DNA of 64,000 nucleotides from Dehalococcoidia bacterium. GTDB taxonomy: Bacteria > Chloroflexota > Dehalococcoidia > Plut-88900. Both the position numbers and the translations under genes were made by a program. The notes beneath the pieces were generated by a model. That model searched no databases, had not been told where the DNA came from, and saw nothing but the letters and a program-made list of their open reading frames with translations. Where the stretch lies: NCBI GenBank assembly GCA_965197645.1, contig OZ240219.1, forward strand, positions 2,496,001 through 2,560,000, read 5' to 3'. How positions within the stretch are numbered: position 1 is the first letter of the stretch; each line of letters opens with the position of its first letter. Shown piece after piece: positions 34,274 to 61,271 of the stretch.

Positions 34274-34404
34274 GTTGAGATGCACATAACAGGAGCATCG
34301 CCATGACTCTTCGTCCGGGCTCCGTAGAGGCCGAGGGATTTGGAGTGGGTCAGTGCCGCCGCACAGCATGATTGACCATGTTCCGCCAACCGCAGACAAA
34401 ATGG

Positions 34405-34520
34405 GCACTATCTGTTCCCGTTGCAGGTGTTCGAATACCCGGTCGAGTACGCCGTTCTTAGACCAGCGGTTCATGCGGGTGTAGATGGTGTGCCAGTTGC
34501 CATACCTGAGCGGCAACCGT
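34405..34520 (-). pseudogene. IS5-family transposase fragment
   Basis: LP.RYGNWHTIYTRMNRWSKNGVLDRVFEHLQ, characteristic of the IS5 (DUF4096) N-terminus. Confidence 0.7.
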
Positions 34521-34800
34521 TCGACCTTCGCGCAACCTAAACGGAAGTCCTGAGTCCGAAGCGCCACTCCAACCGAGAAGTCCATGACAAAGCCTACCGA
34601 ACGATTAGTCGATGATTTACATCAACTCTAGACGGTTACTATTGCAGTTTGCGGTTGAAGATAGGTTGCAACTCCAATATAGTACCTGCGAGAGAGAATA
34701 GCAGACTTGGGGAAAGTCACTTGCCTGGAAACTGGAATCTCTCTAGAAACCGCGAGGTCGAAAGTGCGCTCCCCGCCGAGGAGTGGAAGGATGTGCGAAC

Positions 34801-43385: not shown

Positions 43386-43488
43386 TCCGGGCGGGGCGGC
43401 GGTCCTGCCCGGACAACGGATTCGCCCAATTCCAGGAGTGGACAGACGGCGGGAGCGTCCTGGCGAGTCCCTGTGGAAGGCCGACCAG

Positions 43489-43734
43489 ATGCCTCGACAG
43501 CGCATACACCACAGCAGAGTGACCTACCAAGTCCCCCACGACTTCCCGGAGCGGCTGGAGCGGTTCAAGGAGGAGTCGGGGCTGTCGTGGGCGGAGATTG
43601 CACGGCGTCTCGACGTCCACCACGAGACGCTGCGGCGCTGGAGGAAGGGACGGGCTCGCCCCAGCATGCGGAACATGATGGCGCTGGTGGCCCTGGCGAG
43701 ACCCTTTGGCCTCGCCCACCTGTTCACCGACTAG
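43489..43734 (+). CDS. XRE-family HTH protein
   Basis: DFPERLERFKEESGLSWAEIARRLDV..ETLRRWRKG..P. Confidence 0.8.
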   Translation: MPRQRIHHSRVTYQVPHDFPERLERFKEESGLSWAEIARRLDVHHETLRRWRKGRARPSMRNMMALVALARPFGLAHLFTD

Positions 43735-43778
43735 GGAGTCGGCGCTCCGGTGAGCGCCTGCGGCCGCAGACGCCGGAA

Positions 43779-43802
43779 ACGCAAAAAGGGCGGCACACAT
43801 GG
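43779..43802. repeat. Dispersed motif, copy 2
   Basis: ACGCAAAAAGGGCGGCACACATGG. Confidence 0.7.
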
Positions 43803-44066
43803 CCGGGCCTCTCCCCATCCTCTCCCCGTCACGCCGGCGTTGCCTTACGGGAGCGGCTGCATCATCATAGAGGCGTCGTTGGCGGCAGTCCCGTAGGGGG
43901 CCGACGAAAGGCCAAGCCGCGAGGGGACGGCCCGGTGTGGCGTCCCGCCGGTGGAGACGGATTCGAGTCCGGGCCGCAGGCCGCAGCCTGCGCCATCGAG
44001 GGCCGCCGTCCGCGCAACGAGGGACCAGCCCAATAGGAGAACGCCAGGACATGCAGGAGGAGCGTC

Positions 44067-45218
44067 ATGAACGAGGAGCATGACGGGACGGACCAGGAGA
44101 AGCCATCGGAGGAAGAGTACCAGAGGTTTCGCAGGATGATGGACGGCATGGGTCGCGAGGGCATCCGGCGCATGGTCGAGCATCTGACGGAGAGAATCGA
44201 GGCGAACCCCCGCGACGCCGAAGCCCTGTCCGCAAGGGGGCTGGCGTACGCCGAGCTGGGGGAGCACCGCCTTGCGGCGGAGGACTACGGCAGGGTCATC
44301 GCCCTGGACCCCGGCAACGCGGGCGCCCACCTCGGCAGGGCGCGCGCCTATGGCAGGCTGGAGGAGCACCGCTCGGCGGTGGAGGACTACGACGCCGCCA
44401 TCCGCCTGGCCCCCGGCGACGCCGTGGCGCACTACAGCCGGGGGGCGTGCAAGGCGGAGCTGGGCGACCTTGCGGGGGCGATGAGCGACTTCGACGTGGC
44501 CGTCACCATGGCCCCCGGCGACGCCGACGCCCACTACAACCGGGGATTGACCCAGGTGGCGATGGGCAAACGCCACCGGGCGGTGAAGGACCTGAGCAGG
44601 GCCATAGACTTGAACCCCAACCTCGCCGACGCCCACTACCACCGGGGCATGGCATACCGCGACATGGGCCGGATGGACAGGGCGGTCAGGGACTTCGACG
44701 CCGCCGTCGAGATCGAAGAGCGGTACGGCCTCGCCTTCTACGCCAGGGGAATCACCAACGTCAACCTGGGAGCACACGAGGCCGCGCTCGGCGACTTCGA
44801 CGCCGTGCTGGGGCTCGACCCCGACAACGCCCCGGCGCTCCGGGGCAGGGGCGTCGCCCTGGGCAGCCTGGGCCGTTACGACGAGGCGGTCGGGGACTTC
44901 GGCCGGTCCCTGGAGTTGGACCCCGGCAACGCCGAGGCCCTCGCTGCCCGGGGGCTGGCCCACAGCAGCCTGGAGCAATACGAGCTGGCGATAGAGGACT
45001 ACAGCAGGGTGATCGACCTCGACCCCCGGAACAGGGACGTCCTCTACAGCAGGGGAATCGCCCGCATGTACGCGGCCCGGTTCGAGAGCGCCATCGAGGA
45101 CTTCGAGGCCATCCTCGGCATCGAGCCGGGGCACGCCGCGGCGCGGGGGGCGAGGGGGTTGGCCCGCGAGACGCTGGAGATGCGGGGCGGCGCGGGCGAG
45201 GGACAGGCGGCGCGGTAG
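44067..45218 (+). CDS. Tetratricopeptide repeat protein
   Basis: About 10 tandem 34-aa repeats (A...RG.A...LG....A..DF..A..LDP); SD AGGAGG. Confidence 0.92.
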   Translation: MNEEHDGTDQEKPSEEEYQRFRRMMDGMGREGIRRMVEHLTERIEANPRDAEALSARGLAYAELGEHRLAAEDYGRVIALDPGNAGAHLGRARAYGRLEEHRSAVEDYDAAIRLAPGDAVAHYSRGACKAELGDLAGAMSDFDVAVTMAPGDADAHYNRGLTQVAMGKRHRAVKDLSRAIDLNPNLADAHYHRGMAYRDMGRMDRAVRDFDAAVEIEERYGLAFYARGITNVNLGAHEAALGDFDAVLGLDPDNAPALRGRGVALGSLGRYDEAVGDFGRSLELDPGNAEALAARGLAHSSLEQYELAIEDYSRVIDLDPRNRDVLYSRGIARMYAARFESAIEDFEAILGIEPGHAAARGARGLARETLEMRGGAGEGQAAR

Positions 45219-45291
45219 CGCCGCCGCGCGGACGTGAGCGCCCGCTGCCCCCACTTCAGGGATGTCGAAGACGGGCGGTGATTTCGGGCAA

Positions 45292-45339
45292 CAAAAAAAG
45301 GCGGCATACATGGGAAGCAGGGGGAGGCCATCGCCGCAA
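45292..45339 (-). terminator. Dispersed motif copy 3, forming a terminator for the multi-HTH gene
   Basis: Minus strand GCGGCGATGG...CCATGTATGCCGCC-TTTTTTT downstream of the stop at 45404. Confidence 0.55.
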
Positions 45340-45403
45340 TGACGACGGCCTTCCCCCTGAGCGACGGCCCGGTGCTTTGCGCCGGGCCGTCGCCCACGCC
45401 TCG

Positions 45404-46510
45404 CTAGGCGGCTGCCGGCTCCGGCTGCTTGAGCATGGCGGAGTAGCCGGGCATCAGGACGGGCGTCATCGACAACCGGCCCGCGCCGTCGTACCCGGCG
45501 CGGTAGGCGTACTCCGCCTTCGCGCCCCAGGGCACCCGGCCGCCGACCCGGACGGCGGGACCGCCGGACCTGCCGCGGCGCCCAGGCCCGCCCGCGCCGT
45601 GCACCACCATCCCGCTCCGCTCGCCCTTCCGCCAGCCCAGCACCTTCACCTCGGCGGGCATGACCCGCTCCTCCGACTTCGCGCGCCGGAACAGCACGGC
45701 GTGCAGCCTCTTCAGCACGCCCGCCGACGGGCTGGCCTTGCCGTTCATGATCTGGGAGAGGTACGAGGAGCTGATGCCGGCGCGCCGTGCGACCTCGTTC
45801 TGGCTGAAGCCGTGAGCGTCCATGCGGTCCCACACGGCCTTCGGGTCGACGCAGGCAAGCTGCGCGGACGCGACCGTCGCCTCGGCCTCCAGCGCCGCCT
45901 CGACCAGCGCCTGGACCCTCACGCCCATGCCCCTGCGGCCGCGGGACACCTCCGACATGTAGCTGGCGGACACGCCGACCCGCTCGGCAAGCTCCCGCAT
46001 GGTCATGCCCAGGGCGCGGGCGCGCTCCCGGACGTAGCTGCTCTGCCCGTTCACCACGCTCGCCGGGCGGTTGGCGCACTGTGCGGGCGCGATCTTGGCC
46101 GGGGCCTTGAGCGCCGACTCGATCCGGGTCTGGACCTTGACGCCCATGTTGACGCGGCCACGGGCCACCCCCGACATGTATCCGTAGGACACCCCGGCGC
46201 GGTCGGCCAGGTCCCGCATGGTCATTCCCATCTCGCGGGCGCGCTCCCTGATGAAGCTGCTCTCGCCGGTCACGACGCCGCCCTGGCGGTAGACCGTCCC
46301 CTGGCCGGGGACCTCTCCCAGCACCGCCGCGACCTTCTCCCGCATCACGGGCGTCCACGGACTGCCTCCGTTGGCGAGCCGTGACAGGTAACTCGCGCCC
46401 ACGCCCATCCGGGCCGCCAGCTCCTTCATGGTGAGCCCGCGCCGCCTCGCCGCAGCCCTGAGCTCGCTCTCCGCCGTCCTGGTTCCGGTTGCCATCGTTG
46501 CCGTCGTCAT
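45404..46510 (-). CDS. Protein with four tandem XRE HTH domains and an unrecognised C-terminal domain
   Basis: Four repeats of G(L/M/F)(T/S)..(E/D)(L/V)A.R.G(V/I)...Y(L/M)S....G; SD GAGGAGG before ATG 46510. Confidence 0.85.
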   Translation of the reverse strand: MTTATMATGTRTAESELRAAARRRGLTMKELAARMGVGASYLSRLANGGSPWTPVMREKVAAVLGEVPGQGTVYRQGGVVTGESSFIRERAREMGMTMRDLADRAGVSYGYMSGVARGRVNMGVKVQTRIESALKAPAKIAPAQCANRPASVVNGQSSYVRERARALGMTMRELAERVGVSASYMSEVSRGRRGMGVRVQALVEAALEAEATVASAQLACVDPKAVWDRMDAHGFSQNEVARRAGISSSYLSQIMNGKASPSAGVLKRLHAVLFRRAKSEERVMPAEVKVLGWRKGERSGMVVHGAGGPGRRGRSGGPAVRVGGRVPWGAKAEYAYRAGYDGAGRLSMTPVLMPGYSAMLKQPEPAAA

Positions 46511-46564
46511 CGGTCTGTCCTCCTCTTGTGTTGTGTTGCCTGTGGCCTGCGCCCGCTGGCGGGC

Positions 46565-46604
46565 AAAGAAGAAGGGCCGTCCCCGACGAACGAGGACGAC
46601 CCTT
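46565..46604 (-). terminator. Terminator-like hairpin upstream of the multi-HTH gene
   Basis: Minus strand AAGGGTCGTCCTCG-TTCGT-CGGGGACGGCCCTT followed by CTTCTTT. Confidence 0.6.
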
Positions 46605-46643
46605 GTGAATGGGGGTGTGTTGTGAGAGCCGGAGGCCCCGCCG

Positions 46644-46673
46644 TCAGCGGCGATGGACCTCGTTGACGCGCAT
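46644..46673 (-). CDS. Micro-ORF MRVNEVHRR (leader peptide candidate)
   Basis: Strong SD AAAGGAGGAG directly before ATG; 9 codons then TGA. Confidence 0.4.
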   Translation of the reverse strand: MRVNEVHRR

Positions 46674-46794
46674 GGACTCCTCCTTTCAGTAGCTGACCCG
46701 CACGGCATCCACGGCGGGAGTCATTGGTGATGGGGTTGACGCTGGACGCACTCCGCCCACGGTCGAATGCCGGACGCGAGAGACGGAGCGGGGG

Positions 46795-47097
46795 TGAGAA
46801 AAGACGCAGCTCGGCCCAGGGTGGATACCGTCAGGGGGGAACTGCTACGAGGGGAGCGGCTGTCCTACGGCTTCATCGCAGACCAGCGCATGAGAGAAGA
46901 CGCAGCTTGCCCCAGGGTGCGTAGCGTGCAGGTTGGGAGGAAAGCTGCGAGACGTGAAGCGGCCAGCCTACGTCTCAGTCGCAGACCGGCGCATGGTGAG
47001 GAAAACGCAGCTTGCCCAGGGTGCGTAGCGTCCGCGTTGGGCGAAAGCTGCGAGGCGTGAAGCGGCCAGCCTGCTTGGAACGGCAGACCGGCGCATG
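46795..47097. repeat. Three tandem ~100-bp structured repeats
   Basis: Units start at about 46795, 46891 and 46997: TGAG..AA.ACGCAGCT..CCCAGGGTG...GCAGACC.GCGCA; internal complementarity GCAGCTT/AAGCTGC and GAGACGT/ACGTCTC. Confidence 0.8.
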
Positions 47098-47230
47098 TCG
47101 AAGCTGCGGCCTAGCTGTCAGTCAGCCATGCCGCAGGCGTGAGGAGCCGGTCGAAGCGACAGACGCATTTCGACCGACTGGTGGAGGACGGGGCGCAGAG
47201 AGCGCTCCGTCCCTGATGTCCAACGGCGAG

Positions 47231-47458
47231 AGCGATCAACCCCAACCGCCAGACGAGTGCCCAACGGAAGGAGCGATCAACCCCAACCGCCAGACCGGTG
47301 TCCAGTGACGGAAGCGATCAACTCCCAACCACCGGACGGGTGTCCAGCGGGAGAAGGGCTTATCACTCCAACCGCCGGACTTGGACCGAGGACGAAGGAC
47401 CAGCGTCAACTCCGTCGTTTCGGCCCGCGCTGCTTGCGAAGGACCAACGTCAACTCCG
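47231..47458. repeat. Six-unit iteron-like array with a 41-45 bp period
   Basis: TCAAC(C/T)CC cores at 47236, 47277, 47318, 47363 (TCACTCC), 47406 and 47450; the first three share AGCGATCAAC..CAACC.CC.GAC and the last two share CGAAGGACCA.CGTCAACTCCG. Confidence 0.8.
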
Positions 47459-47695
47459 CTTCAGCAGCATTCCCTCGTGGGAGACCGGGGGAGAGCGAAT
47501 CATCCTCCGGTCATGCCCGTGCAACAGGGATCACGCACCCAGGTTTCTATGGTCGGAAACCTTGGAAAAAGCCAAACAGCAGGCTCATTATCGCGGCCCG
47601 AGACCCGCAAAAGAGGGCCTGCGACGCCCCTTTCGCAAACTGCCGCCAAATCGTTCACTAAAGTTGCCTGCAAAGCCGCCGCACTCCCGGCCCGG

Positions 47696-48547
47696 CTACC
47701 GCCACAACAGTCGGAGGGTCAGCGTGTTCAGAAGCTCCCGCTTCTTCAGCGCTCTCCGCGTGTCGAAGAGCGCCGTCCGGCGATGGGTGACCTGCCCGTT
47801 GCGGTCGAAGCCCCTCAGCGGAAACCTTGCCGGGGGTAGCGTCATGCCGTGGTCTTCGAGCAGGCCCAGCTCCAACGCCAGGAACCGCTCCTCGGTGCGC
47901 AGCCAGTCCAGGCTCTTCCCGTCGTTGGGGTGAACGTCCTTCAGCTCCCGCCACTCGACGATCATCGGCCACGCCTCCCCGAACGCCTCCTCGTCGTCCT
48001 CGGCGGGCTCAAGGGTCACGAGGTCGGGGTACTCTCGCCGCAACCTGGGCCTCGGCGGGGGTTTCCTGCCCATGCCCGACGCACCGCTCTCCGAGCCGTC
48101 CGCTGCCGCCTGGGAGGGACCGGCGCCGGCGTGACCGGCCCCGGTCCCCTGGGCATCGTCCCGACGCAGGGCTTCGACCCGGCCCTCGACGGCGGCCACA
48201 CGTCTCCGCACCTCCTTGCCCAGGGCGTCATAGTCCTTTGCCAACGCCTCATGCCCCTTCTCCAGCGCCTCGACCCGGCTCTCCAGCTTCTCGTTGCGCT
48301 CCCGCTGCCGGGCCGCAGCCGACCCGACGCCCTCCTGCAACGCACGCTCCAGGGCCTGCCGCACCCGCCTCGACAGCTGCCCCGTCCTGGCGCACTCGGC
48401 CACCGTCCGCTGGTCCAGCTCCAGCACCCGCGCCGCGCCCTTGTATCCCTTGTCCCGCACCAGCTCTTGCAGCAGCGCCATGAGCCTCATGTGGTAGACG
48501 TTCTCCACGTCCTTGCTGCTCTCGATGCCGTGTTCGGTGGTCTTCAT
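47696..48547 (-). CDS. Hypothetical protein with N-terminal HTH-like segment and coiled coil
   Basis: KGYKGAARVLELDQRTVA helix-turn-helix pattern, heptad-rich middle; SD GAGGGAG. Confidence 0.65.
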   Translation of the reverse strand: MKTTEHGIESSKDVENVYHMRLMALLQELVRDKGYKGAARVLELDQRTVAECARTGQLSRRVRQALERALQEGVGSAAARQRERNEKLESRVEALEKGHEALAKDYDALGKEVRRRVAAVEGRVEALRRDDAQGTGAGHAGAGPSQAAADGSESGASGMGRKPPPRPRLRREYPDLVTLEPAEDDEEAFGEAWPMIVEWRELKDVHPNDGKSLDWLRTEERFLALELGLLEDHGMTLPPARFPLRGFDRNGQVTHRRTALFDTRRALKKRELLNTLTLRLLWR

Positions 48548-48677
48548 GGCTCTTTTCTCCCTCTGCAAACTCCGCTTGAGTCTCCGGTCAGCCACTGGCC
48601 GGCCCTTTTCCCGCTCTCAGGCCACGGTTTTCGGGGACGTCATGCACCCCCACTTCAAGCGCCTTTTCCGGGGCCTA

Positions 48678-48741
48678 ATGTCATTGGGAAGCCGCTCCCA
48701 CGGTCCCGCCGATGTCATTCCCCACGTTTGGCGATGTCATT
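48678..48741. repeat. ATGTCATT repeated three times (operator candidate)
   Basis: Copies at 48678, 48712 and 48734 in the divergent intergenic region. Confidence 0.5.
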
Positions 48742-48910
48742 GCAGTCCGGAACGCACCCTTTCTGAAAGTGTTCACTGGTTACGTCCTGTAGGGGGGCGA
48801 TTTACCCCTGTTTCAGCTACGAAATCACGACTCTGGCCGCTCTGCTACAAAACTGAAACTCCTGTACACCCCCAATACTGCACGAAAGGGGCCGAAAAAA
48901 AGAGGGCCTA

Positions 48911-48983
48911 TAACCCCCCGCATCCCTGCGCAGAGTCACGGGGGAACGGCCCGTAACCACCCCGCATCCGTGCGCAGAGTTAC
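48911..48983. repeat. Two ~29-bp direct repeats upstream of the transfer operon
   Basis: TAACCCCCCGCATCCCTGCGCAGAGTCAC and TAACCACCCCGCATCCGTGCGCAGAGTTAC. Confidence 0.7.
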
Positions 48984-49068
48984 CAGGGGTCTTATTTCCA
49001 GTTTCATTTAGTCACACTTTTTTGCGACCGCCGTAATCCGGCCATTGGCGGCAGACCGCAGAAGAGAG

Positions 49069-49683
49069 GTGAACGAGTTGGCGCTGAGATCGAAACTCCG
49101 GTCCGTTAGACGGCTGATTCCCCTGGCAATCGCGCTGCTGTTGGCGGCGCTTCTGGCAGTCCCCGCAAGCAACATGGCCCTGGCCCAAGCCCCGCCCGGT
49201 AACGAGCTGACCCTGGTCAACGCCGACCGGGAGTTCGTGGAGCGAAAGGGCGGCGGCGAGTTCGTCGCCCGGCCCGTCTTCGACCGCGAGATCGCCGACC
49301 TCTTCTACGCCGTCCGGGACGCCGACACCGGCGACTGGATAAGCGCCATGTACCGGGTCAATGGCGGCGAGAAGGAGCGAAGCGACGGCTGGGAGTACTC
49401 GTGGGAGTACCCCGACCTCGACGAGCAGCCCGACCTCGACCGCGACCGGGCGTACCTGCTGGTCATTCTGGCCGTCGCCGAGGACGGCAAGCGGGGCGAG
49501 TTCTACGCCGTCGTCCCCATCCACCAGCCGGGCCGCATCTGGGACAAGATCCTCTCCGCCCTCAACCCGGCGCGCTGGGCGCGGGCCTTCGCCGGCTGGG
49601 TGATCGAGGGAGTCCACGGGACCCTCTGCGGAGTGGTGGAGCGGGCGTCCGGCGAGGACGCCGACAACTGCGGGGGCGGGTAG
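49069..49683 (+). CDS. Secreted/membrane hypothetical protein, first gene of the transfer operon
   Basis: Signal peptide (ALA-QA); GC3-rich coding pattern; GTG start. Confidence 0.7.
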   Translation: MNELALRSKLRSVRRLIPLAIALLLAALLAVPASNMALAQAPPGNELTLVNADREFVERKGGGEFVARPVFDREIADLFYAVRDADTGDWISAMYRVNGGEKERSDGWEYSWEYPDLDEQPDLDRDRAYLLVILAVAEDGKRGEFYAVVPIHQPGRIWDKILSALNPARWARAFAGWVIEGVHGTLCGVVERASGEDADNCGGG

Positions 49684-49686
49684 CCG

Positions 49687-50664
49687 ATGAGCGACATCCT
49701 CACCGGCACCCCTGCGGACCTCACCTACGCCCACGAGCTGGTGCGCCAGGCGTGGATGGTCGTCTGGGCCATAACAACCGGCGCCCTGGTGGTCATCCTC
49801 GGCTGGATGGGCCTGAGCTTCATCGTGAGCGAGCACCTGGGCCGCCAGCAGACGGGCTGGCGGGAGATGGTGCCCCGCCTCGTGCTCGGCCTCGTGGCCG
49901 CCGCATCGTCCCTGTGGTGGTGCGCCCTGGTCCTCGACGTGGCCGACGCCGTGTCAGGGTTCATAGCCGTCTCCCTGAACGTCACCCCCGGAGACCTGCT
50001 CAGGGCTCCCCTGGACACCTTCCTGAAAGCCGTCCAGGCCGGGAGCGTGGGCATGGCCCAGCTGCTCGCCCTGCTCTACCTGGTCTACGGCTTCTTCGTG
50101 CTCTACGTCATCGTCCAAATGGTGCTGCGCCTGGCCCTCATCGACATCCTGCTCGCCCTGGCCCCGATTGCGCTTGGGCTGTGGATTCTGCCCCACACGG
50201 CGGGCTGGGGCCGCCACTGGCTCAGGCTCTTCATGACGACGGTGTTCCAGCAGGCGGTGCAGCTCATCGCCCTGGCCCTGGGAATCGGGTTCCTCAACGA
50301 GTTCGCGTCGGTAGCCGCCTTCGAGCCGGTGCAGGACCTTATCTGGAAGCTGCTGATGTCTCTGGCCTTCGTCTACATGGCGACCCGGGTGCCCTCAATG
50401 ATGGGCAACGCCGGGACCTTCGACTCCTGGCTCTCGATGCTCTACTTCGGCATGAACCTGCCCGCTTCGATGATGCGCTCGGCGAAGACCATCGGCCTGA
50501 TGAGCGGGGCCGCGGGAGGGCCTGGAGGCATGGCCGTCGGAGCGATTGCGGCCAGCGCGGGGGTGTCGGCGGCAGCCAGCGGCCTCAGCTCGGCCGCTTC
50601 GATGGCGACCCCATCGGCAGGCGGAGACGGCGGCGGCGAAGCGCCCAGGAGCAGCGGCGAGTAA
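49687..50664 (+). CDS. VirB6/TrbL-like T4SS membrane protein
   Basis: Multiple TM helices, LL.ALAPIAL.LW.LP.T..W...W motif, Gly/Ala-rich tail. Confidence 0.75.
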   Translation: MSDILTGTPADLTYAHELVRQAWMVVWAITTGALVVILGWMGLSFIVSEHLGRQQTGWREMVPRLVLGLVAAASSLWWCALVLDVADAVSGFIAVSLNVTPGDLLRAPLDTFLKAVQAGSVGMAQLLALLYLVYGFFVLYVIVQMVLRLALIDILLALAPIALGLWILPHTAGWGRHWLRLFMTTVFQQAVQLIALALGIGFLNEFASVAAFEPVQDLIWKLLMSLAFVYMATRVPSMMGNAGTFDSWLSMLYFGMNLPASMMRSAKTIGLMSGAAGGPGGMAVGAIAASAGVSAAASGLSSAASMATPSAGGDGGGEAPRSSGE

Positions 50665-50802
50665 CCACGACAACCCACAGGCGCGAACGACAGAGCGCCG
50701 ACCAATACCACGACGGAGGGAAAGCGATGTGCAGCTAACGGAGCTTACGGACCCTGACAGATAGAGACGAGCGGAAGGCTCGAAACGAGAGAGGAGCAAG
50801 GA

Positions 50803-51111
50803 ATGGAAGACCTTACACAGACCATATCGAACCTGGTGGGCATCCTGCTGGGGATCGTGGGAGCGGTGGGCGTCGGCTTCTTCATCTACGGCGCGTACCT
50901 GTACCTGACGGCATCGGGAGCGCCCCATCAGATGGAGCGCGGCAAGAGCGCAATGATGACCGCCCTGGCGGGCATCGTCCTGGCCCTGGTCGCCTACGGC
51001 GTCGTGGAGCTGGTGATGAACGCCGTCGTGGACCCGGGAATCGACATCGACGACGCCCTACCCGAGCCGGAAGCGCCGGACGCCGGCGACGGCGGCGGCG
51101 ACAGCGGATAG
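50803..51111 (+). CDS. VirB2/TrbC-like pilin
   Basis: Two TM helices with YLTASG.P.QMERGK.A between them. Confidence 0.75.
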   Translation: MEDLTQTISNLVGILLGIVGAVGVGFFIYGAYLYLTASGAPHQMERGKSAMMTALAGIVLALVAYGVVELVMNAVVDPGIDIDDALPEPEAPDAGDGGGDSG

Positions 51112-51134
51112 ACGGACGCGAGGAGGAGAGACAC

Positions 51135-52850
51135 ATGAGAGAACACGAGGTACCAACTCACGTTCAGGCCGAGGACCGGGTGCTGCTGGGGTTCACCTTC
51201 CCGCAGGTCGTTGCGGTGGTGGCGGTGTGCGCCATCTCTTACGGCGCATACCGCTACGCCCCCGTCGGCCCGTCCGAGGTGCGCATGGCCCTGGCCGTCG
51301 TCCTCGGACTGGTCGGCGTGGCGATGGTGGTGGGGAAGATAGGGGGTCGGCGGCTGCCGTTGGTGGCCGCCGACCTTCTGAAGTACCGGCTGGGGGCGCG
51401 GGTCTACGCCGGGCCGGTGTCCCAGCTGGTGAGAGCCGAGCCGCCCGCGCCGGCGCAGCCGGTCAGGAGCGGCCCCGGCCCGCTGAGCCTGATGGCGAAA
51501 CGCGCCGGGCGCGGGTTGGGAAGGCTGCGCAAGAACAGGAAGACCCGCAAGAACAAAGAACGCCGCAACGGGCGGATGCGCTGGTTCGGCAAGCGCAGGG
51601 GGAAGGATGCCGGGAACAGGAGCGGCCAAGGGCATAAAGCCGAGACCTTGCAGAGCAGACGCAGGAAGCCCCGCATGGGCTGGATTCCGGTGGTGACCCT
51701 GGCCGTCCTCATGGCGGCTGTCGTGGCCGTTCCGCAGTCGGCCCTGGCCGACGACCACGAGCCCTGGCGGGACGAGATCGACTTCGATCTGACCGAGCCG
51801 GTGGAGGGACGCCGGATATTCGTCGAGGGGCTCACCGTCTCCGGCGACCGGGCCGCCGTCACCCTTCGGGCCGCCACCGCCCTGGACATCCGGGTCCGGG
51901 CATTCGGCGGGCCGGAGGGAAGCTGGCTGCGCTTCTGGGGCTCGGCAACGCTGGCCCAGGGGGAGCGCATCGACTACTCCCTTCCCCTCCACGGTCCCGC
52001 GCCGTCATTCACCGTGTCCTGGGAGGACACCCTGGGACAGGCCGGGGCGCTGACCTTCGAGGAAGCACAGCTTCCCTTCCCCCTGCCGGTCATGGAGGGG
52101 GAGTTGTGCGACCTGCGTATGACCTCCCTGGGCTGGACGCCCGGCGCGGTCAGCGGCGTGGTCGAATCGGAGTGCGTGACGCGCATCGAGCACCCGGTGG
52201 AGCTTCAGACGGTGGCCGGATACGAGAGCGTCACCCAGACGGCGCTCATGGACGCCCAGGTGACGGCCATCACAGGGACGGTCTCCGCCGCGACCGGCGC
52301 GTCCCATGAGAGCGTCCCCTTCGTCCCCGACGGAGAGACGCGGTTCACGCTGCCGGTGGGAGATGGGGCAGGCATTCACAACGTGACCGTGGACGCGAGC
52401 CTTGAGGCGAGCCTCCGCATCCCCATCCCCCCGCTGACCGTGCTCACCCACCACCCGGAGCGGACGGAGCAGGTCACCAGGACCGTGCACCTCCATCGCC
52501 CGGGGGACAGCGACTCCGACAGCCAGACGGCGACGGCCGCCTGCGAGGACGGCGCCACGGCGACCGCCACCGCGACGGCCTACGCCTACGTCCCCAGCGC
52601 CACCATCGCCAGGCAGGTGACGGTGGAGGTCCTGCACAAGGAGCACGTCAAGGCCGAGACGGTGGAGCGGTCGCCCGTCACGAGGACGAGGAGCGAAACG
52701 CTGTCTCTGGCGTCCGCCGTGGGATCGGACGACCCCTTCGCCGTCCTGGTCCTGCCCGAACCTGAGCCCGAGGACCCGCCCGCCGAGCAGGAGCCCGCCG
52801 ATGGGCTGCGCCAGTGGTTCGACCGGCTCGGATGGGAGTGGCCCTGGTGA
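51135..52850 (+). CDS. PrgI/VirB3-like N-terminus fused to a large extracellular domain
   Basis: HEVPTHV..EDRVL.G.T..Q plus two TM helices; basic linker; second signal-like helix; beta-rich C-terminal region. Confidence 0.65.
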   Translation: MREHEVPTHVQAEDRVLLGFTFPQVVAVVAVCAISYGAYRYAPVGPSEVRMALAVVLGLVGVAMVVGKIGGRRLPLVAADLLKYRLGARVYAGPVSQLVRAEPPAPAQPVRSGPGPLSLMAKRAGRGLGRLRKNRKTRKNKERRNGRMRWFGKRRGKDAGNRSGQGHKAETLQSRRRKPRMGWIPVVTLAVLMAAVVAVPQSALADDHEPWRDEIDFDLTEPVEGRRIFVEGLTVSGDRAAVTLRAATALDIRVRAFGGPEGSWLRFWGSATLAQGERIDYSLPLHGPAPSFTVSWEDTLGQAGALTFEEAQLPFPLPVMEGELCDLRMTSLGWTPGAVSGVVESECVTRIEHPVELQTVAGYESVTQTALMDAQVTAITGTVSAATGASHESVPFVPDGETRFTLPVGDGAGIHNVTVDASLEASLRIPIPPLTVLTHHPERTEQVTRTVHLHRPGDSDSDSQTATAACEDGATATATATAYAYVPSATIARQVTVEVLHKEHVKAETVERSPVTRTRSETLSLASAVGSDDPFAVLVLPEPEPEDPPAEQEPADGLRQWFDRLGWEWPW

Positions 52851-53167
52851 GACGCGCCGCGACCCTGCTGCTGCTGACCGGCGCGGCCCTCGTGTTCACG
52901 GGGGCTGCGCCGGAGGAGCACGACACGATGCTGGAGCAGTTCGACCGCGTGCTCACGGCGATGGCCTACGCGGGCTCCGGCCTCGCTGTCTTCGCCATCG
53001 TCTGGGCCGGTTTCATCCTGATGGCCGAGGGAGGCGAGGAGCGCGGCGGGGGCAGGGCCAAGACCGCCGTCGTCATGGCGGTGGTCGGCCTCGTCCTGGT
53101 GCTGTCGGCCAAAGGCGTCGCCGCCCTGCTGAGCCACGGCGTCATCCCATCCTTCCCAACCCCATAG
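52847..53167 (+). CDS. Second VirB2/TrbC-like pilin
   Basis: Two TM helices with G..LM.EGG.E...RAK.A..A.VG between them; GTG overlaps the upstream TGA. Confidence 0.65.
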   Translation: MRRAATLLLLTGAALVFTGAAPEEHDTMLEQFDRVLTAMAYAGSGLAVFAIVWAGFILMAEGGEERGGGRAKTAVVMAVVGLVLVLSAKGVAALLSHGVIPSFPTP

Positions 53168-53187
53168 AGAAAAGGAAACAAACCGAA

Positions 53188-55466
53188 TTGAAGAAGCTGC
53201 TTGAACGAATTACGAGGCGCGGAGCGGGAAGTACCCCGGACGGGGCCGTCGCTCCGCAGGAAATACCGGAGGGCGGACTCACCACGGAGCCAGCACCCGG
53301 TGGAACGACGGAGGCCCCTCCCAAACTCCCGCCCGAGCTGCCCCTGTTCTTCATGCTGTCCCACCTGGACGACGACGGTCCCGTCCGCCTGGACGGGGTG
53401 AAGCTGGGCGTCTGCGAGGTGATGGGCCTGGAGATCGACGAGCCGAAGCTCGGCGCATTCGCCGGGGCGCTCAACGCCCTGGACTTCCCCGCCCAACTGC
53501 TCATAAGGCAGCACCCGCCACGTCTGGCAGGGATGCGGGAGAAGCTGAAGGAGGCGCATCCGGAGAACCTTCCCCCGCAGACGAGGGCCGCCGCCGAGTC
53601 GCTTGGGCGCCTGTTGACGGACCTTGAGGCCCGCGACGGCATCCTCGACCGGCGCTTCTACGCCGTCTGTGAGGCGGCCCGCATCGACGACCTGCGCGGC
53701 CTGCTTTCACGGGCCGGGCTGTCCGTCCACGCCCTGAAGGGCCGCCAGCTTCGCATGTTCCTGGTGGCGGCAACACTCAGCGGCTCGCCCTCCGAGTTCG
53801 ACGAGGAGAGTCCCGTCGAGGTGGAGATAGGCCGCCGCGACGTGCGCGTCGGAGACCGCCTCGTGCGCTCCCTGCACCTGGGCAAGTGGCCCCGGTCGCT
53901 GGCCCCCGGCTTCCTGCAAGGACTCATGGCGGCGGGAGCTCCGATGGACCTGGCCGTCCACGTCGGCCCGATACCGGCGGAGCAGGCGGCCAGGACGCTT
54001 GAGTGGCAGAAGGTGCGCTTCGAGTCGGCCCAGTCTCTCTCCTTCAAGCGCGGCCGCACCATGTCCCCCGAGGCGGAGATCGCCCTGGAGGACATCACCC
54101 GGCTCAGGGACGAGGTGCAGCGCGGCAGGGAGAGGCTGTTTCATGCGTCCCTGTCCGTGACCCTTCACGCGAAGGACGAGGCGGCGCTCAAGGAGATGAC
54201 GCAGCGGGCCAAGGCCCACTTCGGCGCCACACTCGGCAAGCTCGACAACCTGGCCTTCCGCCAGCGCGAGGGCTGCTTTCGACCCTGCCCCTGGCCCTGA
54301 ACGCCGTGGCCGAGTGGCGCAGCCTGGACACCTCCAGCATCGCCCGGCTCTTTCCCTTCTCACCGCCCGACCTGGACACCCGCTCCGGCACCCTCTACGG
54401 CATCGACATGCGGGCCTGCTCCCCGGTGGTCTACGACCCCTGGGACGGAACGCACCTCAACGCCAACACAGCCGTCCTCGCACGGTCGGGAAGCGGCAAG
54501 AGCTTCGCCACCAAGCTCGGCGTTCTCAGGGGCTTGTGCCGGGGAGTGACCGCCTACGTCATCGACCCGGAGGGCGAGTATGCGGACATGGCCCGCGCAG
54601 CGGGAGGGCGCGTTCTCTCCCCCGGCGTGCCCGGCGAGGGCATGAACCCCTTTGTCATCGAGCGGGGCGACTCCGAAGAGATGCTCCAGCGCATCGGCAG
54701 CCTGCGCAGGCTCATCGAGGTGATGGTGGGCGAGAGCCTCGGCGCGGAGCGCCGGGCATCCCTCGACCACGCCCTTGCCGGCTACTACTCCCAGCCCCGC
54801 GAGCGCACCGGCTTCCGGGACTTCTACAAATACCTTCAGGAAGACGAATCTGGAGACCCCGGTCTCGCAAGGCTGCTACGTCCCTTCGCCACCGGCAGCC
54901 TGAGACACCTGCTCTCCGACGAGGGCGACGACCTGCTGGGCAGCGAGGCGCTGGTGACGGTCTTCGACCTGCGGTTGCTCGAACCGGAGCTCCGGCCCGC
55001 CGCCGCGATGGTCTGCACCGAGACGGTGTGGGCGGCGGCCGCCCAGGACCCCAAGCCGAGGCTGCTGGTCGTCGACGAGGTGTGGTCGATCATGCAGCAC
55101 CCCGAAGGAGCGGCCTTCATGGTCAGCATGGCGAAGCGGGCAAGGAAGCACCGCTTGGGACTCCAGTTCATAACCCAGGACGTGCAGGACCTCCTCTCCG
55201 AGGACACGTCGAGGACCATTACCGGCCACTCCGGTCGCGCCCTGCTTCAGAACGCCGCCTTCAAGCTCCTGCTCCAGCAGGACGCGGCGGCCATCAGCAC
55301 GGTCGGCGACGCCTTCGACCTGCCCGAAGACCTCCAACGCTGGCTCCTGTCCTGTCCCCGTGGAGACGGGTTGCTTCTCGCCAGGGGCAACCGCTTCCCC
55401 GTGCGCATCGAGGCGACGCCGGAGGAGACGGCGGTCATCGAGTGGCGGCCGGGCCAGCACAGGTAG
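53188..55466 (+). pseudogene. VirB4-like ATPase split by a 1-nt frameshift at about 54270
   Basis: Frame 1 reads ...AFRQREG and stops at 54300; the other frame continues LLSTLP... with Walker A ARSGSGKS, IDPEGEY and Walker B LVVDEVW; adding one G to GAGGGCTG restores FRQREGLLSTLP. Confidence 0.85.
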
Positions 55467-55519
55467 GCAACGAAACGACGGACACATAGAGAGAGGCCCA
55501 TAGAGGAAGGAGTAGAGCA

Positions 55520-58042
55520 TTGAAGCTGAACCCGAAGAACCTGTTGTTTGGAGAAGATGGCGAGAAGAAAGGTCCCGTCCTGCTGGCGGTGACGCCGCCC
55601 CGCGCCGGGGAGCGCACCCTGCTGGGCGTGGAGAACATGCTCGGCTCCATCGCGGTGCCGGAGCCCTTCTCCCTGGAGCTGGCCGCCGACATGGACGGCG
55701 TGACCCTCTTGGCCCGCTGCCTCGACGACGAGGTGGTGAGAGGCCAGCTCTCCGCCCACTACCCCCAGGCCCGAATACAGAAGGTTGACCCGGACGACGA
55801 CCCCCTGCGCCTGGACGAGAGTGAGCGGGCGTGGAGCATGACCCTGCGGGCCGACGGCCCCGAGTACGTCCCCCTCAGAACATTCAGGGACGACGACCTG
55901 CTCGACCCCGGCTCCGACCCCCTCATCGCCCTGATGGGAGCGCTCTCGGCCCTGGAGGACGACGAGCGCGTGGTGGCGCGGCTGCTTCTGCGCTCCCTGG
56001 GACCCGACTGGTCCCAGCCTCATCTCGAAAAGGCCCACAAGAGGCCCGGCATGGAGCCGAGGGAACCCGCCTACACCTACCAGACCAAGCCGTTGCAGAT
56101 GGACGGCATCACGATGGCCGTGCTGGGCATCGGGGCGCTGGCGGCCCTGAAGGGCTACCTGTGGGTGCAGGACGGCGAGATATGGAAGGCCGCGCTCCTG
56201 GGAACCGGAACCGTACTGGGCCTGGCGGTCGGCGGCTGGGCGTTGTGGCGGTGGAAGAAGTCCCGCAAGCGCGTCGAGGACCCCATCCTGATACAGGAGA
56301 AGGTCTCCCGCATCGCCTTCGACGCCGAGCTACAGGTCACGGCGATCCTGCCGGAGACGACCCGGCCCCAGCGGGCCGCCGAGCTTCTCGGTCCGGTTGC
56401 CGCCGCCTACCGCCACTTCGACAACCCTGCCGGGGCGCGGTTCAAGGTCGGCGGGGTCCGGCCCATAACGCCGGACCCCGACATGCTCCATCCGTCAGGC
56501 CCCGGCCTGTTCGGAAGGCGCAGCGTCATGGGCGTCCGCGAGATCGCCTGCCTGTGGCACCCGCCCGGCGCGGGCGACGAGACGCCCCTGGTGGAGCGGT
56601 CCGGGGCGAGGGCGCTCCTGCCCTCTGCGAAGGGCGTCAGGGGAGGCGCGCTGGTGGGAGACACCACGGCGGGCAAGCCCCGGCCCATCCGCTTCCCCGA
56701 CGACCTGCTCCGCCGGCACCACCTCTACGTAGCCCGCACACGCATGGGCAAGTCCACCCTCATGCACCACCTCGTCGCCCACAAGATGAGGGAGAAGGCC
56801 GAGGGCAGGGACCCGGACGCCATCATCGTCATAGACCCCCACACCGACCTTGTGGCCGGGCTGATGGAGCACGTCCCGGAATCCCTGATAGACCGCGTTC
56901 GTCTGATAGACCTGTCCGACGAGACCCGCTCCCCCGGCATCAACCTGCTGGACACCCGCATCTTCGCAGACCGGGACCGCACCGCCGACTCGGTGGTGCG
57001 CGTCGCCAAGGGCCTGTGGGAGCAGTGGGGGCCGAGGATGCAGTCCATCCTCGAACAGACGGTGAAGACCCTGCACGAGGCCAACGAGCAGGTGGAGGCG
57101 GAGCGGCAGTACACCATCCTCGACGGGCTGCGCCTGCTGTCCAACGACCCCTTCCGCAACTCCGTGCTGAAGAAGGTCTCCGACCCCTATCTGCTTGAGT
57201 GGTGGGCCAGGGACTTCGGAAGCTGGCATCGCCAGTACCGCGCCGAGGCCCTGGCCCCCGTCCAGACCCGCCTCTCCTACTACGCATCGTCGAAGCGGGC
57301 CAGGGCCATCCTCGGCCAGCGCCGCTCCACCATCGACCTGCGAAAGACGATCCACGACGGCGGAGTCCTGCTTGTATCGACGTCGCAGGGCGTCGTCGGC
57401 AGGGACGTGGCCGCCCTGGTGGGCGCGTCCCTCCTCAACCTCGTGGATGCCGTGATACGGGAGCAGGGAAGCCTGCCCCTGAGCAAAAGACGCGGCGCTC
57501 TCGTGGTGGTGGACGAGATGCAGTCGATGCCCGGAGTGGACTACGAGTCGATGCTGAGCGAGCTGGGCAAGTTCGGGGCCAGCTTCGTGCTCGCCACCCA
57601 GAGCCTCGCCAAGCTGGACGACCTCTCCCCCACCATGCGCGACACCCTTCTCGCCAACGTCGGCTGCCTCGCCGTCTTCCAGGTGGCGGGGAACGACGCC
57701 CGGACGCTGGTCTGGGAGCTGGGCAAGGACCGGGTGACCGAGGACGACATCACGTCGCTGCCGGTCCATCACTGCTACGTCCGCGCCACCGTGGGCAAGG
57801 AGCGGATGCCCGCCTTCTCGATGATGGTCAGAAAGCCGGAGGAGGGTGAAGCCGACACCGCCGCCCGCATCCGCGCAGCGGCTGCCGCATACACCGTCCC
57901 GGCCCCGCAGATCGCCTACGGCGACGCCGAGGGCGACCTGAAGGTGGAGGAGTTCCGCAGGGGCGTCGACGAGCTTGGGAAGGACGGCGGACAACAGCAG
58001 CAGAAGCCGGAAGCCGGGGAAGCAGAGGAGGCTGAGGAATGA
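55520..58042 (+). CDS. VirD4/TraD-like type IV coupling protein
   Basis: Two TM helices, Walker A-like ARTRMGKST, IDPH.DL, VVDEMQ and LATQSL motifs. Confidence 0.85.
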   Translation: MKLNPKNLLFGEDGEKKGPVLLAVTPPRAGERTLLGVENMLGSIAVPEPFSLELAADMDGVTLLARCLDDEVVRGQLSAHYPQARIQKVDPDDDPLRLDESERAWSMTLRADGPEYVPLRTFRDDDLLDPGSDPLIALMGALSALEDDERVVARLLLRSLGPDWSQPHLEKAHKRPGMEPREPAYTYQTKPLQMDGITMAVLGIGALAALKGYLWVQDGEIWKAALLGTGTVLGLAVGGWALWRWKKSRKRVEDPILIQEKVSRIAFDAELQVTAILPETTRPQRAAELLGPVAAAYRHFDNPAGARFKVGGVRPITPDPDMLHPSGPGLFGRRSVMGVREIACLWHPPGAGDETPLVERSGARALLPSAKGVRGGALVGDTTAGKPRPIRFPDDLLRRHHLYVARTRMGKSTLMHHLVAHKMREKAEGRDPDAIIVIDPHTDLVAGLMEHVPESLIDRVRLIDLSDETRSPGINLLDTRIFADRDRTADSVVRVAKGLWEQWGPRMQSILEQTVKTLHEANEQVEAERQYTILDGLRLLSNDPFRNSVLKKVSDPYLLEWWARDFGSWHRQYRAEALAPVQTRLSYYASSKRARAILGQRRSTIDLRKTIHDGGVLLVSTSQGVVGRDVAALVGASLLNLVDAVIREQGSLPLSKRRGALVVVDEMQSMPGVDYESMLSELGKFGASFVLATQSLAKLDDLSPTMRDTLLANVGCLAVFQVAGNDARTLVWELGKDRVTEDDITSLPVHHCYVRATVGKERMPAFSMMVRKPEEGEADTAARIRAAAAAYTVPAPQIAYGDAEGDLKVEEFRRGVDELGKDGGQQQQKPEAGEAEEAEE

Positions 58043-59691
58043 AGCCCGAAGGATGTGAGGCCGACCTGCTCCGCGCGCTGTCGCGGATGCCCTTCCTCGA
58101 CCGGCTGGAGATGGTCGCCGTCTGCGGCTGGTCCAGGGGCGCGGTCTACGAGGCCATAGAGAGGCTGGAGTCCGGGGGGCTCTGCGCCTCCGTGCCCCAC
58201 GCCACGGGGCTGCTTCCCCCTTCCCGGAGGTTCCACCTCACCGCCGAGGGGCTGAGGCGGCTCGCCGCAGAGGAGGAGGTCTCCCTCGATGAACTGCTTC
58301 GCAGCCGCCCCGTCTCCGCCCAGTGGCGGCGCAGCCTGATGGAGCGCCTCGACGCCGTGGCATCCGTCTACGGCGTAGCCTCCAACGTCTCCGACATCGC
58401 GTTCCCCGTCCGGTTCCGCTGGTACCGCTCCATCCCCCTCGACGCCGCCATGACCCTTCCCGACGGGAGGACCGTCGGCATCGTCCGGCAGGGACTGACC
58501 GCCGACAGGTCGGGCTTCTCCCGGCGTCTCTGGGGGCTGCGCGACTGGCCGATTCCCGGAACGGTGCTGGCGCTCATGGCCGACGAGATGCGGCTCAGGC
58601 ACGCCCGAAGGCTCCTCTCCACCACCGACGTTCCGGCCCTGCTCGCCGTGGAACGCCTTGCGGTCCTGACGGGGGCGGGCGACCGGATATGGAGTCCGCC
58701 GAAGATCGGCGCCGAGATCGACCTGCGCTACGCCCTCGACCGGGTGGGGCCAGGGGGACAACTTCCAATAGAGCCGGAACCGCAGCGCGCCGACCCGCCC
58801 GCCGACTTCGCCGTCGAGGGTCCGGGATGGGACATCCCCGACCACATGCTGCCGGTCCTTCTCAAGCCCATAGAGAAGCGCGCCCTCGACCTCATCTCCG
58901 ACTGGCCCTGGATCGCCCTCAAGGAGATGGCCGGGCTGATGAACGTCTCGACCCAGAGGGTCTCCCACGGCGTCATCCCCCTCGAAGGCTTCGGCCTCGC
59001 GGCCCGGCCCCGGGAGGCGGGCGGACGCCTCGCCCTCACCGACCGGGGGCTGGCGCTCCTGGCCCGCAGGGACAGGACTTCCGTGGCCGTAGCGAGGAAG
59101 CGGTGGAGCGTCACCCTGGAGGATGCCGAAGGCCCCTTCGAGTGGCGCAACGTCACCGGCAGGCGGACCCGCCAGCTGCTCAGGAACATGGAGCACACCG
59201 CGGCCGCACACGGCTTCCTGGCCGCGCTCGCCGAGCAGGCCCCCCTGCTGGGGTGGGAGGTCGTCCAGCTCGACCCGCCCCGCAGGGCCTCCCGCCACTT
59301 CCGGCACGACGGCGGCATGCGCGCCGTCAACCCCGACGCCTTCGGCGTCCTCCGCAAGGACGATGCGACCTGGCCCTTCTTCCTGGAGTGGGAGCGACGC
59401 GCCGTGCGCCCCTCCACCATGTCCGACCGGCTGGCCCCCTATCTGCGCTACTACTCTTCTCACAGGCCCACCGACGACCACGGCACACGGCCCGCCGTCC
59501 TGGTCGTCTTCGACGACGAGATCGCACAGACCCACTTCCTGCGCGTGGCGCGGGAGGAGATGCGGGCCGAGGGGGTGACGGTGCCCCTGTTGGTGTCCCA
59601 CAGGCAGGCCATAGACGCCCTGGGGCCGATGGGACACGCATGGCGCACCCCCGCCGACCCGCAGTCCCCCCAGGCCCTGACGCCTCAATGA
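58039..59691 (+). CDS. Replication-relaxation (Replic_Relax)-family relaxase, two-module form
   Basis: wHTH followed by H..AAH and PDAFG...FFLEWER PD-(D/E)xK-like core; follows virD4 with overlapping start. Confidence 0.75.
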   Translation: MKPEGCEADLLRALSRMPFLDRLEMVAVCGWSRGAVYEAIERLESGGLCASVPHATGLLPPSRRFHLTAEGLRRLAAEEEVSLDELLRSRPVSAQWRRSLMERLDAVASVYGVASNVSDIAFPVRFRWYRSIPLDAAMTLPDGRTVGIVRQGLTADRSGFSRRLWGLRDWPIPGTVLALMADEMRLRHARRLLSTTDVPALLAVERLAVLTGAGDRIWSPPKIGAEIDLRYALDRVGPGGQLPIEPEPQRADPPADFAVEGPGWDIPDHMLPVLLKPIEKRALDLISDWPWIALKEMAGLMNVSTQRVSHGVIPLEGFGLAARPREAGGRLALTDRGLALLARRDRTSVAVARKRWSVTLEDAEGPFEWRNVTGRRTRQLLRNMEHTAAAHGFLAALAEQAPLLGWEVVQLDPPRRASRHFRHDGGMRAVNPDAFGVLRKDDATWPFFLEWERRAVRPSTMSDRLAPYLRYYSSHRPTDDHGTRPAVLVVFDDEIAQTHFLRVAREEMRAEGVTVPLLVSHRQAIDALGPMGHAWRTPADPQSPQALTPQ

Positions 59692-59712
59692 ACGACGAGG
59701 AATGAGAGACCC

Positions 59713-60713: not shown

Positions 60714-60769
60714 GCGGGGGTGCAGGCGGTCCGGTGCGGGAGGAAGGTGCGCAGCGAGTGTGGCGCGTT

Positions 60770-61232: not shown

Positions 61233-61271
61233 AAGGGTAAGACATATTGTTACATCGAAGGGCAAAAAAAC

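Follow-up and report, generated by a model that had tools for sequence, protein, structure and literature searches.

The window analysed here is a stretch of 64,000 nt of contig OZ240219.1 (assembly GCA_965197645.1, positions 2,496,001-2,560,000), from a Dehalococcoidia bacterium; all coordinates given below are positions in this window. It contains an integrative conjugative element (ICE) of about 20 kb (43400-63100), within which a stretch of 1185 nt (46511-47695) separates two genes of the minus strand. The first of these genes, designated UP, encodes a protein of 283 aa, and the second a protein with four helix-turn-helix (HTH) stretches, designated multi-HTH. The stretch that lies between them is the subject of this analysis. 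It is non-coding, it carries two sets of tandem repeats that fold into hairpins, and the observations assembled below point to a highly structured RNA as its probable product.

A repeat-built stretch between two genes

An earlier note, made from the letters of the window, had seen no convincing long open reading frame (ORF) in 46511-47695. This was borne out by the codon-phase G+C, which is flat over 46510-47680 (0.55-0.72); third-position G+C reaches 0.87-0.98 in the flanking genes. Tandem Repeats Finder (TRF) detected one array with a period of 41 (3.2 copies, 47217-47350) and another with a period of 103 (2.0 copies, 46864-47072). A separate repeat search agrees with both; it sorted the repeats into families D1-D10, spaced by 41-44 and 96-105. 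The direct-repeat spacings of the shorter array are 41, 41, 42 and 44. The stretch is non-coding because its codon-phase G+C is flat and because its repeat periods (41, 42, 44 and 103 nt) are not multiples of three. A repetitive protein-coding gene could nevertheless have been overlooked, and chance does produce long ORFs on the plus strand, such as 47298-47933. The third-position G+C signal is however absent in every phase and, like the periods, the differences in unit length among related loci are not multiples of three. Next to no credence is therefore left for a missed gene, which is refuted as far as the letters allow.

The minus strand of the stretch folds into about 18 hairpin domains. 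The six-unit array, the three hairpins, the three units of about 100 nt, the micro-ORF and the terminator-like hairpin described in the earlier note were all found on this strand, and the neighbouring protein does contain the four HTH stretches attributed to it. The parts of the locus and its two flanking genes are listed below in the order of the minus strand.

47696-48547, minus strand: UP gene, 283 aa from the ATG at 48547; third-position G+C signal, homologues begin at the same Met
47617-47640, minus strand: weak terminator-like hairpin just 3' of the UP stop codon; 8 pairs, T-rich tail, moderate conservation
47587-47592, minus strand: -10-like hexamer (GATAAT, AATAAT or GATACT), putative promoter element of the RNA, without a -35 at canonical spacing
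47516-47581, minus strand: near-invariant 5' block; its small hairpins number two or three, one of them with GAUC in the loop
47471-47512, minus strand: two more hairpins, of 30 nt and 12 nt, that also belong to the 5' domain; from the fold
47383-47468, minus strand: hairpin units U1 and U2 (40 and 44 nt), from the fold and repeat family D10
47215-47382, minus strand: hairpin units U3-U6 (37-39 nt, period 41-42)
47103-47213, minus strand: three single-copy hairpins H1-H3, from the fold; present in 76 of 78 related loci
46799-47100, minus strand: three tandem units of about 100 nt, from TRF, nhmmer and covariance model R2
46697-46836, minus strand: 3' domain with further hairpins, from the fold and inverted repeat I1
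46644-46673, minus strand: nine-codon ORF MRVNEVHRR (ATG at 46673, TGA ending at 46644) behind a strong Shine-Dalgarno sequence
46572-46604, minus strand: intrinsic terminator, 14-bp stem and T-rich (U-rich) tail; predicted 3' end of the RNA
45404-46510, minus strand: multi-HTH (XRE-type) gene, 368 aa; Pfam HTH_3 and HTH_31, four HTH stretches

Two designs are found among the six hairpin units. U1 and U2 (47429-47468 and 47383-47426) each have two stems, one outer and one inner, and end in a 3-bp tip whose loop is GYUG. In U3-U6 (47342-47380, 47300-47337, 47259-47295 and 47218-47254), the outer stem has 8 bp and the inner stem 4 bp, and the conserved apical loop reads UGAUCG in U4-U6 and takes a longer form in U3. 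The three single hairpins that follow span 47185-47213, 47145-47179 and 47103-47138. In each unit of about 100 nt, hairpin a has 12 bp, and hairpin b is long with a variable tip; two of them (47000-47100 and 46895-46998) match the covariance model and the diverged third (46799-46895) was recognized by nhmmer only. Further downstream, 17 nt of the 3' domain (46729-46745) and the 5' side of unit U2 show, in sequence alone, a complementarity of 88%. The loop UGAUCG is self-complementary when U-G pairs are allowed, and three or four loops of the locus carry UGAUCG or GAUC. At the DNA level GATC is not enriched (4 found for 3.3 expected in the locus), and a methylation or restriction reading of this motif was dropped.

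Conservation, strand-specific helices and probable transcript ends

Related loci were gathered by one scan of species-representative genomes with the UP protein. The 78 loci obtained (L001-L078) all belong to Dehalococcoidia or Chloroflexota metagenome-assembled genomes (MAGs), with up to five loci per genome, and each of the two flanking proteins has more than 1600 unnamed homologues. The non-coding stretch lies directly 3' of UP in 77 of the 78 loci, with 70-93% nucleotide identity; the exception is L074, in which the homology of the element ends directly after UP. Its mean identity to the window is 0.827, the corresponding values for codon positions 1, 2 and 3 of UP being 0.85, 0.87 and 0.77, so that it is conserved about as well as coding positions. 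The 5' block (about 47516-47581) is the extreme case, with at least 90% identity in nearly all columns over 75 loci and, for the 30 nt at 47527-47556, 99% identity in 98% of these loci. No match to the locus was returned from plasmid and phage collections (blastn, distant mode).

The three single hairpins were compared across 75 loci. As many as 94.5% of their 2670 cells are paired, versus 32-50% when the partners are slid, and both-side changes occur in 13 pairs, versus 6.4 +/- 1.7 in shuffles (1/500 as good). G-U and U-G combinations amount to 350, A-C and C-A to 78. The RNA fold of this region has z = -4.89, none of 200 shuffles being as good. The repeated modules show the same pairing preference. 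In 1.6 Mb of related DNA from 77 sources, the hairpin-unit model R1 has 240 matches (4 are found in the window); 98.6% of 1404 cells are paired among 117 distinct units, with 355 G-U cells versus 19 non-standard ones, and the alignment keeps a conserved G-U at two positions. Model R2 of the 100-nt unit gives 126 matches; in 118 distinct units, 2465 cells were compared, of which 95.5% are paired, with 388 G-U versus 112 non-standard cells. Every R1 and R2 match lies in this locus and on its sense strand, apart from a second, inverted copy of the element in L057 and one weak match in L043. The common unit has the apical loop UGAUCG, whose positions are 85-99% conserved in the 117 distinct units, and the number of copies, as counted with nhmmer, ranges among loci from 1 to 6 for the hairpin unit and from 1 to 4 for the 100-nt unit.

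The same strand dependence appears in the folding energies. Read as RNA, the minus strand of 47215-47590 has z = -6.57 (0/100 shuffles), and read as DNA z = -1.95; the plus strand gives -1.15 as RNA and -0.57 as DNA. Since G-U pairs outnumber A-C asymmetrically, the helices are assigned to the minus strand and a palindrome of duplex DNA is excluded. The helices thus form on the sense strand only, and are stable only with RNA energetics.

This asymmetry bears directly on the possibility that the repeats are double-stranded DNA sites, that is iterons, operators for the multi-HTH or UP proteins, or an array comparable to sopC, a centromere-like repeat array. The locus does resemble an iteron or sopC array in its tandem direct repeats of one period. 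The period of 41-44 bp is close to four helical turns, each repeat contains an inverted repeat and a conserved core, and two HTH proteins flank the locus. Yet the arm mismatches are nearly all G-U (355 versus 19 non-standard), an asymmetry that is meaningless in a duplex. Moreover, the multi-HTH gene does not regularly accompany the repeats, being absent from 24 of the 78 loci although the array is kept in 77. The length of the multi-HTH protein and the number of hairpin units are not correlated either (r = 0.11), and an arrangement with one HTH domain per repeat was rejected on the same figure. Double-stranded sites are accordingly considered very improbable, and the origin recognised by the multi-HTH protein, which the earlier note had entertained, is not supported.

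A single-stranded DNA element deserves slightly more attention. It could be a single-strand origin or initiation site (sso/ssi), or a part of the origin of transfer (oriT), which folds after conjugative transfer or during rolling-circle replication. The cluster of hairpins is indeed strand-specific, non-coding and located inside a conjugative element, as for Frpo, ssi and sso. Were oriT located in the divergent region 48596-49044 and its polarity F-like, transfer would involve the minus strand, the one that folds; a single-strand origin is possible only under this condition. In the loci devoid of multi-HTH, Rad52-like and RecE/Cas4-like genes are found downstream, as in establishment regions. 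On the other hand, the fold is unremarkable with DNA energies (z = -1.95), a quarter of the base pairs of the units are G-U, hence G-T in DNA, and a -35/-10 pair is absent from both strands. According to passages of PMC11541004, Frpo-type elements carry -35 and -10 sequences and were sought in regulatory regions of 50-350 bp upstream of ORFs, a size to be compared with about 1 kb here. This size points instead to a transcript, as do the -10 and the terminator, which are conserved at the start and at the end of the locus, respectively, and the single-stranded DNA element is rated improbable.

Both ends of this putative transcript can be placed provisionally. The columns of the -10-like hexamer are 70-99% conserved over 75 loci and the 40 nt upstream diverge between subfamilies; a hexamer that is kept as the preceding 40 nt vary is what a -10 element and a transcription start would be expected to show. 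The hexamer is located 6-8 nt ahead of the conserved 5' block, and the RNA would start at about 47580, just 3' of it, unless it arises by read-through from UP. At the other end, the terminator at 46572-46604 would define the 3' terminus. The scan found 7 terminator-like sites, versus 1.8 +/- 1.3 in shuffles. This terminator, already visible as a hairpin in the earlier note, combines its 14-bp stem and U-rich tail with conservation in 62 distinct sequences, in which the loop is variable, G-U/G-C exchanges occur and the tail is almost invariant. The promoter proposed in that note, TTGCGG..GATAAT, held only in part: the GATAAT-type hexamer is conserved across loci, but TTGCGG (47605-47610) is wrongly spaced as a -35, with a gap of just 12 nt to GATAAT (47587-47592), and the consensus scan was negative. 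Between the two possibilities left side by side in the note, a structured non-coding RNA (ncRNA) or a cis-acting origin, the first fits a transcript with its own start and terminator and agrees with the strand-specific G-U-rich helices, the exceptional RNA fold of the minus strand and the conserved hexamer and terminator. The second, with iterons for the multi-HTH protein, found no support.

A possible multivalent scaffold or leader

It is thus quite likely that the locus functions as an RNA, and the arrangement of its parts suggests how. Transcription of the minus strand, initiated at about 47580 or continued from UP and stopped at the terminator 46572-46604, would produce a string of about 18 hairpins, which begins with the 5' block and continues through the arrayed hairpin units of 37-44 nt, the three single hairpins and one to four 100-nt units. 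The repeated identical loops could bind several copies of one partner, making the RNA a scaffold or a sponge in the manner of CsrB/RsmZ; alternatively, the loops might pair with each other through the self-complementary UGAUCG. A scaffold or sponge acting in trans is favoured because the loops are invariant, the valency is variable and the RNA is kept whatever the downstream gene. The complete proposal, an ncRNA of about 1 kb, highly structured, belonging to a family of Dehalococcoidia ICEs and serving as a multivalent scaffold or sponge, has in our judgement an even chance of being correct. Its trans-acting part, taken alone against a cis-acting leader, is advanced tentatively and falls somewhat short of that.

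The genes found downstream of the hairpins are central to this choice. The multi-HTH gene was found in 54 of the 78 loci. In the loci that possess it, the hairpins are followed by a near-identical peptide of 9 codons (most often MHVNEVHRR). In those without multi-HTH, the hairpins precede a conserved ORF of about 155 aa (for example L045:11913-12413; also in L048, L050-L054, L057, L058, L062, L067, L068 and L078), then the same terminator, then different genes. The stop codon TGA of the micro-ORF aligns with that of the longer ORF, and the micro-ORF is probably what remains after the deletion of a gene of about 155 codons, with its start joined to its end, rather than a leader peptide. The RNA region is kept in these loci all the same, which speaks for its being more than a leader of that gene.

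A cis-acting RNA leader or attenuator, in which the hairpins and the final terminator gate the read-through from UP into the downstream genes (that of the candidate small zinc-finger membrane protein in some loci, multi-HTH or recombination genes in the rest), is nevertheless a serious rival and the main remaining alternative. Several hairpins are followed by U-rich runs, the orientation is shared with both flanking genes, and the strong terminator lies about 60 nt ahead of the ribosome-binding site of the next gene. A canonical promoter proper to the RNA is missing, and in the loci devoid of multi-HTH the conserved ORF of about 155 aa is situated between hairpins and terminator. These arguments are countered by the equal conservation of the RNA in about 43 loci in which the ORF is cut to 9 codons, by the scan, which did not call the internal hairpins as terminators, and by the architecture itself: an array of about 900 nt with invariant loops and variable copy number goes far beyond the needs of known attenuators. 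The leader is therefore regarded as unlikely, though clearly less so than the DNA elements discussed above.

Several observations weigh against the complete proposal. The consensus scan found no sigma-70-like promoter on either strand of 46300-49200, and the RNA has no canonical -35. No RNA-binding protein was recognised among the neighbours and no partner was found; the UP protein looks, from its model, like a DNA-binding regulator. In 24 loci, the region stands directly 5' of a small protein gene within one terminator-bounded unit, which suits a leader. Its linkage to UP exists by construction, the loci having been collected through the UP gene. The locus is broken by insertions of 1.2-2.2 kb in five cases, L016:11135-12822, L021:11418-12760, L031:11486-12683, L069:11090-13318 and L009:11542-12703. 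The first four are insertion sequences (IS) with transposase genes of differing families (DDE_Tnp_1_4; IS110; DDE_Tnp_1 with DUF772; rve/Mu-like) and the fifth, in L009, has no recognised transposase or family; the element therefore tolerates an interruption of the locus, at least temporarily. As regards covariation, both-side changes in the R1 and R2 modules are no better than in shuffles (259/500 and 126/500), the two alignments having been fitted to the model structure, and the 5' block is too invariant for covariation testing. Finally, many loci are close relatives, so that the shuffle controls overstate the support.

Comparison with known RNAs did not provide a named family. In Rfam 15, scanned over the whole window at gathering score, only a tRNA passes; in permissive scans of 45000-49000 and 46500-47700 the best match was CC2171, a small RNA (sRNA) of Caulobacter, with 25.3 bits for a gathering score of 75, and the likeness of this weak match (46574-46695) is confined to a Shine-Dalgarno sequence and a terminator. 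The GOLLD and ROOL models gave no match even at E <= 10. Exact 11-mers complementary to the RNA were sought within the element, and only scattered matches of 11-13 nt and the repeats of the RNA itself were found.

The nearest known kind is nonetheless that of the large ornate RNAs such as GOLLD and ROOL, with which no model match is shared. Both are described as RNA-only homo-oligomers. They are carried on mobile DNA, and their oligomers are held by kissing loops. The present RNA resembles them in exceeding 500 nt, in its many conserved helices and in that the function is not known for either; it differs in being made of tandem modules of variable copy number and in residing on a conjugative element of Dehalococcoidia rather than on a prophage. 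Oligomerisation through the self-complementary loops is, in the present case, pure conjecture by analogy. A new class of giant modular RNA of this kind, which would be an RNA machine by itself and either assemble into a multimeric particle via the UGAUCG loops or act as a multivalent decoy for a host factor or a defence protein, is considered doubtful. Such a decoy might operate at the activation of the element or at its entry into a new cell, the copy number of the hairpins setting the valency.

The protein-sponge sRNAs CsrB/RsmZ and CrcZ, whose loop motifs are GGA or CA-rich, offer another comparison. They also contain many similar hairpins with one conserved loop motif, in numbers that vary between relatives. 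The loop motif is different here (UGAUCG), the RNA is about three times longer and it is located on an ICE.

A third comparison concerns toxin-antitoxin (TA) systems of type III. According to PMC3401426, ToxIN, CptIN and TenpIN are defined by tandem repeats, a terminator and then a gene, and share with our locus tandem RNA repeats of about 36-40 nt and a location on mobile DNA. In such a reading, the tandem-repeat RNA would be the antitoxin and the gene behind the terminator the toxin, and the order of putative promoter, repeats of about 40 nt, terminator and gene is indeed the same. The downstream protein, however, is either an XRE multi-HTH protein or a candidate small zinc-finger membrane protein, and no ToxN-, CptN- or TenpN-like endoribonuclease was matched in Pfam and PADLOC for either protein, or in NCBIfam for multi-HTH and the L050 copy of the other. 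The families that multi-HTH did match in Pfam, NCBIfam and PADLOC are all of HTH type. The units are plain hairpins inside a much larger RNA, between the 37-44-nt array and the terminator come several hundred nt (about 600) that fold differently, and the RNA is still present in loci in which the small gene is deleted. A TA-like system is thus among the least credible explanations.

The interest of a structured RNA in this position is manifold. Few bacterial ncRNAs approach 1 kb, and OLE, GOLLD, ROOL and the omega RNAs each opened new biology. The RNA described here is found at 77 loci, often several per genome, on an uncharacterised element family of Dehalococcoidia, which have no genetic system and whose mobile-element biology is little known. 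A search of the open-access literature for ncRNAs of ICEs in Dehalococcoidia found nothing relevant and, by the same search, a regulator or scaffold of conjugation made of RNA would be a control layer not described for ICEs. The repeat-built architecture also provides an experimental handle, through the number of units and the sequence of the loop.

Neighbouring genes and the host element

UP is the sole gene that adjoins the locus in every family. Its product has an HTH-like domain at the N terminus and a conserved, helical one at the C terminus, and contains a coiled coil whose heptad-like repeats vary; it belongs to no Pfam, NCBIfam, PHROG or PADLOC family. The AlphaFold2 (AF2) model has a predicted local distance difference test score (pLDDT) of 76, and Foldseek returned only weak Cro/XRE-like matches of the N-terminal domain (E of about 1); for the C-terminal domain (pLDDT 84 in the model) no fold match was obtained at E < 0.8. 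Among PDB sequences, a profile search matched nothing but amphiphysin (E = 0.12), on account of the coiled coil, and in the ESM Atlas HTH leads appear below 0.8.

The multi-HTH gene contains a tandem duplication of 219 nt (77% identity, 45860-46290) that corresponds to one HTH unit. Its homologues have lengths of about 330-590 aa, which suggests a variable number of HTH units. The identities of UP and multi-HTH to the window are uncoupled, with 78% for UP and 95% for multi-HTH in L009, and 96% and 79%, respectively, in L004. These values point to recombination between variants of the element. Several MAGs hold three to five copies, as illustrated by the five loci on CBDAOG01 contigs and the four on OY759598.1.

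The product of the ORF of about 155 aa is rich in Cys and His and has a hydrophobic C-terminal segment. Its Cys/His motifs suggest a zinc finger, and hence a small zinc-finger membrane protein; no family was found in Pfam or PADLOC for the L045 copy, nor in NCBIfam for the L050 copy. Downstream of the terminator, the loci without multi-HTH encode an annealing protein of the Rad52 family and a Cas4/RecE-like exonuclease, together with a DUF7007 protein (L050:13959-17027 and equivalents); this set is a module of the establishment or recombination type.

Third-position G+C served to call the genes of the element, which were then compared with Pfam and NCBIfam. A type IV secretion system (T4SS) operon occupies the plus strand from 49045 to 58042, with TrbL/VirB6-like, pilin-like, PrgI-like, VirB4-like and coupling proteins. 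Next comes a Replic_Relax relaxase (58039-59691) and then, at 61486-63072, a large serine recombinase. UP and, beyond the non-coding stretch, multi-HTH are divergent from this operon. The homology to related loci ends near 43500, and no attachment-site repeats were found at the ends of the element. The oriT was not located; neither around the relaxase gene nor in the divergent region do the inverted repeats stand out. In the VirB4-like gene (52814-55466), third-position G+C indicates that the coding frame shifts twice, near 53200-53400 and 54000-54300; either the copy is decaying and has two frameshifts, or the long-read assembly has introduced indel errors.

The divergent region between UP and the transfer operon (48596-49044) is a candidate operator or oriT region. 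It contains two direct repeats of about 35 nt with hairpin potential (about 48905-48975), three AATGACAT boxes (about 48680-48745) and a block (about 48787-48816) that is 94% identical in 97% of the loci. Boxes of another type, TGAAC/TGACC, are found in L047-L059 and L062 at about 60-120 nt past the UP stop codon, where four or five of them with a spacing of about 11 nt precede the -10-like hexamer. One or two boxes of this type occur in the window (about 47650-47665), and a further GTGAAC is present upstream of UP near 48775. These boxes may be operator sites. Finally, upstream of the mapped left end of the element, the window carries a tRNA-Met (31981-32055) and a fragment of an IS4/5-type transposase (34235-34585), and the G+C content steps from about 0.60 to about 0.68 near 35 kb.

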